A stretch of DNA of 64,000 nucleotides, from assembly GCF_055900595.2 (NCBI RefSeq), contig NZ_CM148325.1, one strand, 5' to 3'. A model generated the notes under the pieces. The model was not told where the DNA came from and did no database searches. It saw only the letters and a list, made by a program, of their open reading frames with translations. The position numbers were made by a program, and so were the translations under genes. Positions 29,830 to 34,910 of this stretch are shown here, piece by piece (the first letter of the stretch is position 1; the number at the start of each line of letters is the position of its first letter).

Positions 29830-29863
29830 TGAGGCCTGCTAAACAGCAAAACGGAGACGCGTG

Positions 29864-30385
29864 ATGGCTATTATTCTCGGCATTGACCCGGGTTCGCGCG
29901 TGACCGGCTATGGCGTCATCCGCCAGGTAGGCAGGCAGCTGTCCTACCTGGGTAGCGGATGTATACGCACCAAAGTGGATGATTTACCGTCTCGTCTTAA
30001 GCTCATCTATGCGGGCGTGACGGAAATCATCACCCAGTTCCAGCCTGATTATTTCGCCATTGAACAAGTCTTTATGGCTAAAAATGCCGACTCGGCCCTG
30101 AAGCTGGGGCAGGCGCGTGGCGTGGCGATTGTGGCGGCGGTGAATCAGGAATTACCGGTATTTGAATACGCGGCACGTCAGGTAAAGCAAACGGTGGTAG
30201 GTATTGGTAGTGCCGAAAAAAGCCAGGTGCAGCATATGGTTCGCACCTTGCTGAAACTCCCCGCTAATCCTCAGGCGGATGCCGCTGATGCGCTGGCAAT
30301 TGCCATCACCCACTGCCACGTTAGTCAGAATGCGATGCAGATGAGCGAATCGCGGCTGAACCTGGCTCGCGGGAGACTGCGTTAA
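29864..30385 (+). CDS. ruvC: Holliday junction resolvase RuvC (173 aa)
   Basis: ORF track 29861..30385 trimmed to ATG 29864 ([19 protein letters not shown]...). Confidence 0.95.
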
Positions 30386-30443
30386 TAAGATTCAGGGAAT
30401 ATTCATTGCCGACTGGCAATTACTAGGGCAGGGAGTGCCTCTG

Positions 30444-31952
30444 ATGACAATGTTAAAAACAGTAAGATTCTGGCTCGTCGAATTAATACTGCTGGCAGTT
30501 GTGTTGCCCGTATTAGCGATAATTTTTTACTCCTGTACTCTATTTTTTCCTTTTTACGCCGAAGGCGGTATCTTGGAGTTTAGCGCCACACTAATAGTGA
30601 CTGCTTTAAGTGGTCTGGCGTTAGGAAGGGTAAGAAGTGCCTTTGTCCCGCTAAATTTATCATTCATTTCCCTGATCCTCCCGGAAACCCTGCTACTTTT
30701 TTATACACTTGTTGTCTGGCTAACATTACTTATTATTACGGATAGTGAGTTTAATAGTGGACTATTTTATACCGGGCAGGATTGGTTGGGCATTTTCAGC
30801 CTATTAACTGAGGCTGCGACGGAAGACGAATTTTTTACGCCATCGTTAATGCAGGTGGCTACGCCTGCGATACCGGCTGTGGGTATTCTGGTCTATATTG
30901 TCTCACTGACGCATGCTGCAAGAGGGCGAAACCGGCTGACGAACATTGTAGGATGGCGTTATATCGTAATCCCGGTTTTAATGGCGGTTATAAGCATTGC
31001 GGGATTACTCGCATGGCAAATCCATGACAGAAGTGAAAGAAAAGTGGTCAGTGTGCCAGAAACGCAGCTTTCTGAGCGCTTGGCATTAAAAGATTATTCT
31101 CCCTTTACCGCCAATAATAAATTAACACACCTCAATGAACAGGCCACGCTGGCGATAGCGAGTAACTGGCCGCAACTGAATGGCGCGACAGCGCTCTATC
31201 CACTGTATGCCTCGATGGCGCAAATGGTTTATCGCAATCTGAATGAGGAAAGTGCCGAGGATTATATAAAGTGCTGGAAAACCCAGGGAGCCTACACAGC
31301 TTTGATAGAAGGGCGCGCGGATCTTATTTTTGTCGCCGAACCCTCTGATGAGCAACGAGAGCAGGCGCGTAACAGTGGCGTTGGTTTGCATTTTTATCCT
31401 CTGGCGCGAGAGGCTTTTGTTTTTGTCACTCATAAAGATAATCCGGTTACAGCGTTGAGTGATAAACAGATCCGCCAAATCTATTCTGGCGACATCAATA
31501 ACTGGCAGGATGTTGGCGGGCGCGACGCACGGATCATGCCTTTTCAGCGACCGGAAGGCTCAGGTAGCCAGACAATTATGTTAGCGGCTGTGATGAAGCA
31601 GGAAAAAATGCGCAAACCGCTGGAAACGGAACGGATAAGCGAAATGCAGGGGTTGATACGTAATGTTGCCAGCTATCAGAACAGTACAAATGCTTTGGGG
31701 TATACGTTCCGGTACTACTCAACACAAATGCACCACAGCGATAATCTCCGCTTGCTAGCGGTAAATGGTATTGCGCCAACGGCAGAAAATATTCGCAGCG
31801 GGAAGTACCCCTATACGGTAACGGTTTATATGGTTAGCGCGGGAAGACCTGACGCGCAGGTGCAAAAAATAATCGACTGGTTTTTGAGTGCGCAGGGGCA
31901 GAAAATGGTCGCTGAAACCGGATATATCCCGTTGGGAAAATCAACCAGGTGA
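30444..31952 (+). CDS. Accessory membrane protein: about 190-aa multi-pass TM region fused to a C-terminal PstS-like periplasmic binding domain (502 aa from ATG 30444); function unknown
   Basis: ORF track 30435..31952; ATG 30444 follows RBS gggag; 5-6 hydrophobic segments then PstS-like residues (GSGSQT, YTFRYY); not recalled in K-12. Confidence 0.7.
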   Translation: MTMLKTVRFWLVELILLAVVLPVLAIIFYSCTLFFPFYAEGGILEFSATLIVTALSGLALGRVRSAFVPLNLSFISLILPETLLLFYTLVVWLTLLIITDSEFNSGLFYTGQDWLGIFSLLTEAATEDEFFTPSLMQVATPAIPAVGILVYIVSLTHAARGRNRLTNIVGWRYIVIPVLMAVISIAGLLAWQIHDRSERKVVSVPETQLSERLALKDYSPFTANNKLTHLNEQATLAIASNWPQLNGATALYPLYASMAQMVYRNLNEESAEDYIKCWKTQGAYTALIEGRADLIFVAEPSDEQREQARNSGVGLHFYPLAREAFVFVTHKDNPVTALSDKQIRQIYSGDINNWQDVGGRDARIMPFQRPEGSGSQTIMLAAVMKQEKMRKPLETERISEMQGLIRNVASYQNSTNALGYTFRYYSTQMHHSDNLRLLAVNGIAPTAENIRSGKYPYTVTVYMVSAGRPDAQVQKIIDWFLSAQGQKMVAETGYIPLGKSTR

Positions 31953-31964
31953 ACATACGTAAAT

Positions 31965-31993
31965 GGCAAAAACCATCACCAATGGTTTTTGCC
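31965..31993. terminator. Strong hairpin between convergent accessory ORF and yebB (putative bidirectional terminator)
   Basis: Perfect 12-bp stem ggcaaaaaccat / atggtttttgcc with cacc loop; no clean U-tract on either side. Confidence 0.55.
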
Positions 31994-32029
31994 ATGATAT
32001 GCGACTCACACTGCTTCTGGCAGCCTGGT

Positions 32030-32602
32030 TTAGTCATTATGACTGGCATGGATTAACGTCAACCCCGGATGATGCCACAAACTGGCTGGCGTGACGGTTT
32101 TACGCTCCCACGGAATAGAACCTAAGAACCAGAATTTCCAGAAAGTGAGTTTTGCATTTGGATTGCTGTTTAGCAGTTCTCCAAACGTCTCTATTTCACC
32201 CACCGGAATACATAACGCCTCTTTATAAATATCAAAAACGAATTTTGAACAGAACTGGCGGGAAGATTCGTATTTAAAACCGGTGTGGTAGAACTTATGC
32301 AACCGGGCAGGGACCTTTTCGACAAGAGCAAGTTTCTGCTCTGCGGTTAAACCTCCTGCCAGGCGGCGAACACCGTAGCGTTGCTCGGTCGACCGTTCAA
32401 TAAATCGTGACAAAGTTGTGATTGTGGAGAGCGGAACTCGACTCTCCGCAACCAGGTAATCATCACCGTCATGTCCGATGATTATCCCCACATGGTTGCT
32501 CCAGCATTTCGAGGCTGCAGAGATTTGCCCAAACAGGCGAGCACCGATGCAGGTAAAAACAATATCACCGGTTTCATATTTAGCTGGGTAATTTATTTTC
32601 AC
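32030..32602 (-). CDS. yebB: YebB, permuted papain-fold (NlpC/P60-superfamily, YiiX/YaeF-like) putative amidase (190 aa)
   Basis: ORF track; [46 protein letters not shown]... Cys/His pair; no signal peptide. Confidence 0.8.
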
Positions 32603-32695
32603 TATATCAATCCATTATTTATATATAAAACAGCATCTATCTTTCGTGATGGTAAAGCATTAGCATTGTATTGTAATAATGACAAGGAATGTTTT

Positions 32696-33520
32696 ATGCG
32701 GTTATTTATTAATGTGATAATGATAGTTTCGATCAGTCAATGCGTGAATGTATTTGCTCAAGATAATGTCATTCGCTATCCCTGGCGATATGGACGTATT
32801 TCTTTAAATGAGAATAATGAGTTTGTGCCTCAAATTATTCATATGCGTGATGATATCTACGGCGTGGGTGAAGTTGGTGCAAGCCTTAACGATGCGAGAA
32901 TGGCGCAAAGTGGTGTCACCGTGAGGCTTAGCGTTATACAGCAGGGGCAGGTGGTGAATGCTTTACTGGATTTCTACAATAGCAATAATCAACCTGCTTA
33001 TATATTTGAAGGCGGTTTATTGTCCTGCAATAAAGCCTTTGACATCACAACAAACAACATTGTCCTTGATGGGATGTGTGGAATTTATGATGGGGTCGAT
33101 GGCTGGCAAGTTATTCCTGCGGGTGAGCATTATAAAGAATCGTTTTCACTCACTCAGGCTTTTGAATTCTTGCCGGGAAAACATCATTATAAAATTAATG
33201 CCGGAGGTTTTATCATCAGAGTCGGGGATGATATTTTTGCAAGAGAAGATGCCGAAAGCATTCTTTTTGATTTGATTAACTGGCGATATGGCTATGTGCT
33301 AAAAAGTTATGAAAGGGTGTCAAAGGGGGATTTGATGGCAGGATATTATGCTCTGTATGAATACTCAGGCGCTGACATAATTGATGAGTATGATATTTAC
33401 TCAAACCAGGTGTCGATTGATCTTAATGGTGACGAGTTAGCACATACGGAGTCCTATCAGTGGCGAATTGATAGCGGAATGATCCCGGAAAAATTCAGCG
33501 TTCAGGGACTCGCTGAATGA
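32696..33520 (+). CDS. Accessory Sec-signal periplasmic/secreted protein of unknown function (274 aa from ATG 32696)
   Basis: ORF track 32471..33520 trimmed to ATG 32696 after RBS aagga; N-terminus MRLFINVIMIVSISQCVNVFA-QD is a signal peptide with VFA cleavage motif; AT-rich. Confidence 0.65.
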   Translation: MRLFINVIMIVSISQCVNVFAQDNVIRYPWRYGRISLNENNEFVPQIIHMRDDIYGVGEVGASLNDARMAQSGVTVRLSVIQQGQVVNALLDFYNSNNQPAYIFEGGLLSCNKAFDITTNNIVLDGMCGIYDGVDGWQVIPAGEHYKESFSLTQAFEFLPGKHHYKINAGGFIIRVGDDIFAREDAESILFDLINWRYGYVLKSYERVSKGDLMAGYYALYEYSGADIIDEYDIYSNQVSIDLNGDELAHTESYQWRIDSGMIPEKFSVQGLAE

Positions 33521-33557
33521 ATCGTCCTCTACCTGCTTGCCAGATACAGAGGCGCGG

Positions 33558-34127
33558 ATGAATTTATCAAGCGTATTCAATCAGCTTTTAATCTCATTAG
33601 CTCTTGCCGGGACGTTGATATCAAGCAGCTATCTCATGGAAGCTCACTACCCGCGTTTCAGGAAGCCAATTGCGTTCTTTTACTTCTTCTTAGCAATTTA
33701 TACCAGTTATGCTGCCGTTCTGGAGTATGAGTACCACCGCACTAGCTTGACTACGCTCGCAAAAGTTTCTTCGGTTCGTTATACCAGTAATTTTGAGCGT
33801 AGCGCCTCGCACTCCTGCAATTTACTGCGGGGAGGAAGGATTGATTGCACGGGGCTGTATGCCTATGACCTGACCTGGCAGATTGACGGTAAGACCTGGA
33901 ATTTGCATGTTGAGGACAAGCGTATAAAACCAGGATTCACCATGTGCGTGAAGGTTGTAAAAGATCGCCCCGCCATCGGGAAATCCTGTGAAAACGCGTT
34001 TTTCAATGTCAGCCCTTTGCCGATTCTGATAGCTATATGGGCAATCAGCGCATTTATATTTGCGGTCTTACTCCTTCACAGACTAAAAAAATGCCGCAAA
34101 TGGAAGCACGCCAGCAAGGGGCGTTGA
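33558..34127 (+). CDS. Accessory inner-membrane protein, 2 N-terminal TM + Cys-containing loop + C-terminal TM and basic tail (189 aa from ATG 33558)
   Basis: ORF track 33537..34127 (TTG) trimmed to ATG 33558 after RBS gagg; hydrophobic segments at about residues 8-27, 36-56, 163-183; 37 nt after upstream ORF. Confidence 0.6.
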   Translation: MNLSSVFNQLLISLALAGTLISSSYLMEAHYPRFRKPIAFFYFFLAIYTSYAAVLEYEYHRTSLTTLAKVSSVRYTSNFERSASHSCNLLRGGRIDCTGLYAYDLTWQIDGKTWNLHVEDKRIKPGFTMCVKVVKDRPAIGKSCENAFFNVSPLPILIAIWAISAFIFAVLLLHRLKKCRKWKHASKGR

Positions 34128-34229
34128 AAAATTGGGCATTAGAAGTGTGATGTAAGGGGGATTCATACAGAATTTCTGATGCTGTGAGCAAAAGGATTAT
34201 CATTTCTGAAATGATTTAATATCATCCCT

Positions 34230-34249
34230 CGCTGGATATCTATCCAGCA
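34230..34249 (+). promoter_or_regulatory. LexA (SOS) box of the ruvAB promoter
   Basis: cgCTGGatatctatCCAGca, the known CTGG-N8-CCAG variant SOS box, about 50 nt upstream of ruvA GTG. Confidence 0.85.
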
Positions 34250-34298
34250 TTTTTTTATCATACAGCATTATCTTTGATTCATTACGCAGGAGCGTCAT

Positions 34299-34910
34299 GT
34301 GATAGGCAGACTCAGAGGCATCATCATTGAAAAACAACCCCCACTGGTATTAATTGAAGTGGGCGGCGTAGGCTATGAAGTGCATATGCCGATGACCTGT
34401 TTTTATGAACTCCCTGAAGCGGGTCAGGAAGCGATCGTTTTCACCCACTTTGTGGTGCGTGAAGACGCGCAACTGCTGTACGGTTTTAACAATAAACAAG
34501 AGCGCACGTTGTTCAAAGAGTTGATCAAAACCAACGGCGTTGGGCCTAAACTGGCATTGGCAATCCTCTCCGGAATGTCAGCGCAGCAGTTCGTTAATGC
34601 CGTTGAGCGTGAAGAAGTGGGGGCGCTGGTGAAACTGCCGGGTATTGGCAAAAAAACCGCCGAACGCTTGATTGTCGAAATGAAAGACCGATTTAAAGGT
34701 TTACATGGCGATCTCTTTACGCCAGCTGCCGACCTGGTACTCACGTCACCTGCCAGCCCGGCGACCGATGATGCCGAACAGGAAGCGGTTGCCGCGCTGG
34801 TGGCGCTGGGCTATAAACCACAAGAAGCAAGCCGCATGGTGAGCAAAATCGCTCGCCCTGACGCCAGCAGTGAAACATTAATTCGCGAAGCCCTGCGCGC
34901 CGCGTTATGA
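34299..34910 (+). CDS. ruvA: Holliday junction branch-migration protein RuvA (203 aa), GTG start
   Basis: ORF track; [43 protein letters not shown]... Confidence 0.96.

Follow-up and report, generated by a model that had tools for sequence, protein, structure and literature searches.

A mosaic yebB allele between two variable gene slots at the ruvC–ruvA locus, and a secreted neighbor with relatives in VgrG modules

When a conserved enzyme gene is flanked on both sides by accessory genes, does it work with them, or does it mark the place where they came and went? We addressed this question for yebB in a stretch of 64,000 nucleotides (nt) from contig NZ_CM148325.1 of NCBI RefSeq assembly GCF_055900595.2, hereafter the window, in which yebB shares the interval between ruvC and ruvA with genes for three envelope proteins: a membrane-anchored PstS-like substrate-binding protein on the ruvC side and, on the ruvA side, a secreted protein of 274 amino acids (aa), here called Sec274, with a small membrane protein, here called TM196. 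A preliminary description, made from the letters alone, had suggested that YebB, as a cytoplasmic amidase, could be functionally linked to an effector or immunity module formed by these neighbors, or alternatively that yebB is a landmark into whose flanks DNA was inserted. Our analysis favors the landmark alternative in an extended form: with a probability of roughly 0.72, yebB is a landmark and also a recombination arm between two cargo slots, and stands outside any functional module with its neighbors. The ruvC-side slot would hold the PstS-like protein and the ruvA-side slot the secreted and the small membrane protein, and the contents of both would come, go and be swapped independently through homologous recombination, which we infer to be the transfer mechanism, with ruvC, yebB and the ruvA SOS-promoter region serving as arms.

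The counts for E. coli come from direct searches of 5426 complete genomes. Nearly all of these have the order known from K-12, in which ruvC is followed by an abutting yebB (200 aa), the 21-aa yobI and ruvA. Eleven genomes have ruvC, a 200-aa yebB, the 274-aa gene, a gene of ~190 aa and ruvA, without the PstS-like gene, and eight have the full window arrangement that includes it; the other 5407 lack both Sec274 and its associated yebB 5′ allele class, and the annotation of nearly all these 5407 shows a K-12-type yebB. The place of yebB between ruvC and ruvA is shared by Escherichia, Salmonella, Pseudocitrobacter and Superficieibacter, and the genes flanking it vary independently. The ruvC-side slot is empty in most Escherichia; it is occupied by a PstS-like membrane protein in the window and, at ~55% identity in each case, in Salmonella and the metagenome-assembled genome (MAG) L016, by an unrelated 331-aa secreted protein in Pseudocitrobacter vendiensis, and by an SGNH-like lipoprotein in S. 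electus. The ruvA-side slot contains yobI in the K-12 type, Sec274 with TM196 in the window type, Sec274 with a different 228-aa membrane protein (Escherichia sp. E1V33, L017), a membrane protein of 228–230 aa alone (E. albertii, Salmonella), the 274-aa protein alone (P. vendiensis), or a TM196 homologue alone (S. electus). With yebB constant and its flanks varying, the landmark proposal stands, refined by the added role of recombination arm, and the proposed functional link is not supported, as every combination of the three neighbors is found around a yebB that is always there, and relatives of two of them, the PstS-like protein and Sec274, occur elsewhere without a nearby gene of Peptidase_C92 (C92), the family to which yebB belongs.

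The two cargoes also differ from each other in their variation. The eight carriers have PstS-like genes that are 100.0% identical, as is the whole segment on the ruvC side of yebB, which is missing from the E. coli that lack the PstS-like gene as well as from K-12 and was found in 8 of the 5426 genomes; the 274-aa gene differs by 2–5% among its 19 carriers, and the window's copy is closest to those of strains without the PstS-like gene. From this unequal identity among carriers it follows that the cargoes have different histories and that the PstS-like gene spread recently. The PstS-like family is large (2386 matches), and its members occur without a C92 neighbor in Limnobaculum and in the E. 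coli glgP–glpD island.

The yebB allele of the window is a three-piece recombinant mosaic. The preliminary description had named identity with the K-12 protein as the finding that would speak against it; YebB proved to be 86% identical overall, with the differences unevenly spread and the C-terminal 14 aa of K-12 replaced, in the alignment, by SHND. Codons 1–105 belong to a divergent allele class, for which synonymous divergence (dS) from K-12 is saturated and nonsynonymous divergence (dN) is 0.147, and they are nearer to the allele of P. vendiensis (dN 0.065). That species has a 274-aa homologue next to yebB; in other Pseudocitrobacter the allele differs and this neighbor is missing. Within E. 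coli, the 5′ 315 nt of yebB were found in 19 of the 5426 genomes and the Sec274 gene in exactly these 19, across which the allele class is 97–99.7% conserved. Codons 106–186 are of E. coli type, with dS 0.34 and dN 0.0105 against K-12, similar to the dS values of 0.27 for ruvC and 0.16 for ruvA in the same tract, and residues 106–180 are identical to K-12. The third piece is the variable C-terminal tail, which lies outside the Pfam domain: the four-codon SHND replaces the last 14 K-12 codons in genomes carrying the PstS-like gene, and in genomes with the 274-aa gene only, the K-12 tail is kept and yebB still abuts ruvC. Short tails of the form xSH... recur wherever the space between ruvC and yebB is occupied (Salmonella, MAG L016, S. 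electus), for which reason we rejected the idea that the insertion made the SHND tail de novo. In the recombination model, codons 1–105 would travel with the secreted-protein gene and the last four codons with the PstS-like gene, each end of yebB being imported with its adjoining cargo, while codons 106–186 would have the same history as the core genes around them. The recombination endpoints would thus fall inside yebB because it serves as a recombination arm, and the divergence of YebB from K-12 would be due to recombination hitch-hiking.

The outer junctions of the block complete this picture. Homology to K-12 stops exactly at the ruvC stop codon, and on the other side all cargo variants (yobI, TM196 and the 228-aa protein) join conserved DNA 9 nt upstream of a site that we take, from established knowledge of the ruvAB SOS promoter, to be the ruvAB LexA box; a scan had called it a terminator-like hairpin. 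A repeat search at the edges of the ruvC-side segment found no terminal repeats or target duplication, only chance-sized repeats and a hairpin; a tRNA scan found no tRNA gene; and none of the four block proteins has an integrase- or transposase-like match or, in PADLOC at E ≤ 0.1, a match to a defence model, the sole PHROGs match being a PstS-like moron model for the binding protein. The block thus lacks what characterizes a mobile genomic island (integrase or transposase, tRNA or attachment (att) site, direct repeats). Apart from the block, positions 1–45391 of the window are collinear with K-12, and the wider neighbors are aspS, nudB, yebC, ruvCAB and znu, with no vgrG, PAAR or hcp nearby; the flanks of yebB, absent from K-12, are accessory envelope genes on both sides, as the preliminary description had it. 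Identity to K-12 is 99.1% over 1–22773 and 95–97% from 22951 to at least 45391, with gene order unchanged; the drop falls in the cmoB/torZ intergenic region and persists through at least zwf, a tract of at least 22 kilobases (kb) that holds the block. Judged by this divergence, the tract was probably imported.

Gene orientation limits how yebB could be coupled to its neighbors. It is convergent with the PstS-like gene and divergent from the 274-aa gene, which rules out co-transcription with either; yebB would be transcribed alone, and any coupling could act only through the AT-rich spacer of 93 nt that it shares with Sec274. The composition of this spacer, noted in the preliminary description, is indeed extreme: its G+C content of 25.8% compares with a window mean of 50.9%, and only 0.17% of 93-nt windows are equally AT-rich. 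Its proposed role as a promoter region gained no backing, since a promoter consensus scan over 30300–34400 returned 12 sites against 7.9 ± 2.7 in shuffled sequence, which is not above expectation. Only one promoter-like match falls within the spacer, and its end would coincide with the start codon of yebB; a relaxed scan of the spacer, moreover, gave best sites that differ in each species, so that no promoter was assigned. Rfam, searched over 30300–34400 at E ≤ 1, yielded nothing. Between the convergent stops of the PstS-like gene and yebB lies a perfect inverted repeat, plausibly a two-way terminator by prediction, with UUUAC following on the yebB strand.

Several observations nevertheless weigh against yebB as a landmark and would suit a different explanation, namely that the four genes form one envelope module in which YebB acts on a lipid or lipoprotein tied to its neighbors and is co-regulated with Sec274 from the spacer. 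The complete order of PstS-like gene, yebB, Sec274 and TM196 recurs in MAG L016, which is distant at the genus level (accessory proteins 45–55% identical, YebB 85%, core proteins 92–96%), and the PstS-like–YebB pair recurs in Salmonella; a gene order kept for so long can be a sign of function as well. Two blocks of the spacer recur in conserved form in E1V33, P. vendiensis and MAG L016, and so over three genera: TCCATTnTTnATATATAA beside yebB and ATAAAGnATTAnCAT..TATT..TAAT..CAAGG beside the 274-aa gene. The spacer is better conserved across genera than the Sec274 protein, as would fit shared regulation, and the corresponding yobI/yebB spacer of K-12 is a divergent binding site of sigma-70 holoenzyme in vitro, on both sides (PMC3946193). 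Lipids at membranes, moreover, are the presumed targets of permuted NlpC/P60 enzymes (PMC3142127), and YebB may be linked to envelope lipids or lipoproteins. The linkage between the yebB 5′ allele and Sec274 would also allow co-adaptation; it cannot decide between the models because the two are only 93 base pairs (bp) apart. Set against these points, the accessory genes come and go independently of each other around a constant yebB, relatives of the PstS-like protein and of Sec274 are found at other loci without a C92 gene, and the ruvC-side slot can be filled by genes as unrelated as those for the 331-aa secreted protein and the SGNH-like lipoprotein. All the taxa are, furthermore, close relatives, so that synteny by descent is the null expectation. 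On this balance, we consider a four-gene functional module unlikely.

Turning to the enzyme itself, the yebB open reading frame (ORF) is, by its sequence matches, that of YebB, which belongs to the YaeF/YiiX-like permuted NlpC/P60 (Peptidase_C92) group, as had been proposed. The protein matches PF05708 (Peptidase_C92) at E = 2.4e-46, with residues 9–185 aligned to positions 2–166 of the 166-position model, the NCBIfam YebB equivalog NF008547 at 368.7 bits (cut-off 227), and YiiX (PDB 2if6) with a phmmer E-value of 5e-18; the NCBIfam YiiX model scores 78.4 bits, under its cut-off of 216. The C92 domain fills the 190-residue protein and there is no trafficking domain. The position is orthologous, between ruvC and ruvA in the window as in K-12. 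The YiiX catalytic set (Cys128, His49, Glu64 and Tyr115; PMC3142127) maps through the 2if6 alignment to Cys118, His37, Glu53 and Tyr105 of YebB with agreeing spacing, and all four residues are conserved in 14 of 14 YebB sequences compared; His37 precedes Cys118, as a circular permutation entails. The Cys and His that had been picked out earlier in a single quoted peptide divide accordingly: the catalytic His37 lies there, whereas the peptide's Cys is non-catalytic, the real one being Cys118. Hydropathy analysis found no hydrophobic segment in YebB, in keeping with the earlier reading that it has no signal peptide, and such segments in all three neighbor proteins.

As we infer the chemistry, Cys118 would be the nucleophile, acting with His37, Glu53 and Tyr105 on the oxyanion side, and YebB is probably a cytoplasmic Cys-His-Glu hydrolase or acyl-transfer enzyme that works on a fatty-acyl amide or ester; this substrate is proposed because the analogous YiiX binds fatty acid (PMC3142127). 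YebB shares with YiiX and BcPPNE (PMC3142127) the Peptidase_C92 family, the permuted His...Cys order and, residue for residue, the Cys, His, Glu and Tyr; the sequence match to YiiX is distant, however, and fatty-acid binding is known for YiiX only. With K-12 YebB (b1862; WP_001024932.1) it shares the ruvC/yebB/ruvA locus, the strand, the GTG start and the NF008547 model, but the window's gene faces the secreted-protein gene where that of K-12 faces yobI, no longer abuts ruvC, and differs in its first 105 codons and its tail. Published work on yebB is very sparse and amounts to a transposon mutant whose lag phase is long, an S54G change noted incidentally and a promoter table from systematic evolution of ligands by exponential enrichment (SELEX).

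Could the altered ends of yebB instead reflect decay, the PstS-like insertion having removed the C-terminus and the divergent 5′ half recording relaxed constraint? The loss of 14 K-12 codons for four, an IS91 truncation of yebB in another strain and the shortening of the coding sequence to 177 aa in several RefSeq records would all agree with this, yet the frame is open across the full Pfam domain, the four catalytic residues are kept, short 'SH' tails are normal in Salmonella, L016 and S. electus, and the 5′ allele class shows the conservation among 19 genomes given above. The ratio of nonsynonymous to synonymous substitution (omega), quoted for both halves only where dS is measurable, is 0.03 for codons 106–186 against K-12 and 0.05–0.06 against P. 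vendiensis. Decay is therefore very improbable; with all catalytic residues kept and omega at 0.03–0.06, the mosaic allele should be active, and on sequence grounds it is probably both intact and active.

Least probable of all, to the point that we set it aside, is that YebB is a toxin-like permuted NlpC/P60 enzyme comparable to the type VI secretion phospholipase toxins Tox-Act1 and TseH, with the adjoining secreted and membrane proteins as its immunity: such toxins share the superfamily and permuted catalytic core of YebB and have envelope-located, membrane-associated immunity proteins (PMC12994826), YebB's neighbors are likewise envelope proteins, and other members of the Sec274 family look immunity-like, but YebB has no trafficking domain beside a C92 domain that spans 9–185 of 190 residues, no secretion genes lie nearby in DNA otherwise collinear with K-12, yebB is nearly universal in E. 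coli without the partner gene, K-12 both lacks that partner and tolerates a yebB transposon insertion, the relatives of Sec274 follow aspzincin-type HExxH genes and not C92 genes, and in the published tree YiiX-type enzymes fall in a lipid-metabolism clade apart from the Tox-Act1 and TseH clades (PMC12994826).

What is unexpected at the locus is the neighbor, likely to be an orphan that resembles immunity proteins and comes from an aspzincin effector/immunity family not, it appears, described before. Sec274 has no match in Pfam, NCBIfam, PADLOC or PHROGs, and its close family is tiny, with six 90% clusters among 5.8 billion proteins; all members whose context was examined sit at the ruvC–ruvA locus. 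An exhaustive HMMER search added ~15 remote relatives (E = 5e-10 to 8e-4), all secreted and roughly 270–315 aa long, with 24–31% identity, a phmmer E-value of 5e-10 against the whole library and a pairwise blastp E-value of 5e-15. A signal peptide is carried by all full-length relatives; in Sec274 itself the hydrophobic N-terminal segment covers residues 1–22 and ends in VFA, before QD. At five independent loci (L023, L024, L025, L026 and L028/L029), the C-terminal end of a VgrG is followed by an HExxH gene and then by the Sec274 relative, an order downstream of an effector that holds for the remote relatives only. The L028 pair has a PAAR gene and a complete VgrG ahead of it, the L023 pair is followed by tssF, and L026 has two tandem pairs; a further locus, L027, was too short to add information. 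The HExxH proteins are 160–309 aa long and carry TLCHExSHF; the longer ones also carry GTxD, the aspzincin signature, and one matches Pfam Aspzincin_M35 at E = 5e-5. No C92 gene lies near the Sec274 relatives in these VgrG modules.

A structural model of Sec274, of medium confidence (predicted local distance difference test (pLDDT) 69), gives a predicted beta-sandwich that resembles the AsaP1 propeptide and the inhibitor IPI of B. subtilis. AsaP1 is an aspzincin (M35), and the matches in the AlphaFold database (AFDB) include M35 zymogens; the part of AsaP1 that is matched would, from the fold type, be its propeptide. Sequence identity to AsaP1 and IPI is 10–13%, and Sec274 differs from them as a free-standing secreted protein and not a propeptide. 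The closest characterised analogue of the Sec274-relative loci, by analogy of arrangement, is VgrG2b–PA0261 of P. aeruginosa (PMC6899460), in which the gene for a periplasm-acting HExxH toxin, delivered by type VI secretion, is likewise followed directly downstream by that for the signal-peptide immunity protein that neutralises it. Unlike in VgrG2b, where the toxin is fused to VgrG, the HExxH protein of the Sec274-relative loci is encoded by a separate gene after vgrG and has the aspzincin combination of HExxH and GTxD. PA0261, whose cysteines are conserved, differs from the Sec274 relatives in being described as a small ORF (PMC6899460).

Taken with the remote homology and gene context, this medium-confidence model suggests that Sec274 is probably an orphan immunity-like protein unrelated to YebB. 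The earlier conditional suggestion that a neighbor of yebB might be an immunity protein thus gains support for the secreted ORF, with the difference that its partner would be an aspzincin metallopeptidase and not YebB. A more specific proposal, to which we would give somewhat less than even odds, is that Sec274 is an orphan of an undescribed type VI secretion immunity family directed against VgrG-associated, aspzincin-type (HExxH plus GTxD) periplasmic toxins and acting by mimicry of the M35 propeptide; a search of one literature library found no paper that combines type VI secretion and aspzincin. A tblastn search of the window for an aspzincin HExxH effector found nothing, and the effector is absent from every Sec274 locus at ruvC–ruvA that was inspected. 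Omega for Sec274 is 0.25–0.34, denoting moderate purifying selection. In two E. coli genomes, NZ_CP169399 (L006, 2059–3107) and NZ_CP169309, the gene is frameshifted, so that Sec274 is dispensable in at least some backgrounds.

The features of the locus are collected in Table 1.

Table 1. Features of the ruvC–ruvA interval and its borders, in window coordinates
Feature	Positions	Strand	Details
ruvC	29861..30385	+	Conserved left arm; product 100% identical to K-12 RuvC
Segment absent from K-12	30386..32045	.	1660 bp; replaces ~47 bp including the last 14 codons of K-12-type yebB
PstS-like substrate-binding protein	30444..31952	+	502 aa from ATG 30444; mechanical ORF from GTG 30435 (505 aa)
Inverted repeat	31963..31995	.	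Perfect 14 bp, 5-nt loop; putative two-way terminator
yebB	32030..32602	-	573-nt ORF, 190 aa, GTG start as in K-12
yebB tail	32030..32045	-	...A SHND stop; stands in place of K-12 tail EGVETPQPELTEAV
yebB codons 106-186	32046..32287	-	E. coli-type part, ~94% nt identity to K-12
yebB codons 1-105	32288..32602	-	Divergent allele class, 55-80% nt identity to K-12 per 60-nt bin
Cys118 codon	32249..32251	-	Predicted catalytic, in RQFCSKF; alignment to 2if6, codon checked
Tyr105 codon	32288..32290	-	Predicted catalytic; alignment to 2if6, codon checked
Glu53 codon	32444..32446	-	Predicted catalytic; alignment to 2if6, codon checked
His37 codon	32492..32494	-	Predicted catalytic; alignment to 2if6, codon checked
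Divergent spacer	32603..32695	.	93 nt, 25.8% GC, between yebB and the 274-aa gene
Sec274	32696..33520	+	274 aa, ATG 32696, AAGGA ahead of start; signal peptide MRLFINVIMIVSISQCVNVFA followed by QD
TM196	33537..34127	+	Mechanical ORF from TTG 33537; likely start ATG 33558, 189 aa
K-12-homologous DNA resumes	34222..34298	+	98% identity; right-hand junction common to all cargo variants
LexA box (presumed)	34231..34248	+	CTGGATATCTATCCAG; within 34222..34298
ruvA	34299..34910	+	Conserved right arm

The remaining accessory proteins can be described more briefly. The ATG start of the PstS-like protein matches RefSeq and P0007. Its N-terminal ~200 aa form a hydrophobic region, predicted to contain several membrane segments, ahead of a PBP_like_2 domain that matches PF12849 at E = 5e-26; against TIGR02136 the protein scores 116.7 bits, under the cut-off of 206.6. 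The glgP–glpD island (L020/L021, 5001–8612) encodes a paralogous membrane-anchored PstS-like protein of 502 aa, common in E. coli, followed by three ORFs of 236, 255 and 201 aa, none of which falls in a Pfam family. These ORFs show no similarity to Sec274 or TM196, and we dropped the idea of a recurring module of binding protein, secreted protein and membrane protein. TM196 has hydrophobic segments near both ends, no domain match and a tiny family, and its Cys-containing middle is presumably periplasmic. A second family of membrane proteins, ~228 aa long, replaces it in E. albertii, Escherichia sp. E1V33 and Salmonella (L009, 5006–5692; L014, 3968–4654; L018, 7402–8094); its members have a C-terminal part rich in Cys, and several membrane segments are predicted for them.

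Annotation of the locus is uneven. In several RefSeq records, yebB is erroneously cut to 177 aa, and a 349-aa ORF begins inside yebB on the opposite strand (L001, 4672–5721; L005, 2059–3108; equivalent to 32471–33520 of the window). The exact 274-aa start of Sec274 is annotated in one RefSeq record, and the annotation of NZ_CP074749, with the 274-aa signal-peptide form and a 200-aa yebB, fits the sequence better than the 349-aa and 177-aa calls. In E. coli 2015C-4498 (L003, 2788–4710), yebB has lost its 3′ part to an IS91-family element, and the annotation gives ruvA as frameshifted. Citrobacter amalonaticus (L013, 2726–5815) has a YebB homologue with 74% identity at a site apart from the ruv genes, where its neighbor is a 1029-aa protein that carries RTX-type calcium-binding repeats; none of the window's neighbor genes is found there.

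For yebB, the result is mostly book-keeping: a conserved gene with a recombinant allele serves as a homology arm for cargo exchange. It is nonetheless a clean small example of a core gene that, by hitch-hiking with accessory DNA, gains a deeply divergent allele class, seen here in 0.35% of the complete E. coli genomes, and it cautions against taking such divergence in yebB as functional adaptation. If Sec274 is an immunity protein, the flanks of yebB in Enterobacteriaceae may be a recombination hotspot that gathers and trades stand-alone protective envelope genes of this kind, the small membrane proteins that alternate in the ruvA-side slot could be further examples, and the importance of yebB may lie only in carrying such genes from species to species as a homology arm. 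Should its identity as an orphan immunity protein prove true, the locus would point to a pair of aspzincin effector and propeptide-like immunity protein in type VI secretion modules, with propeptide mimicry as a testable mechanism for the Sec274 family.

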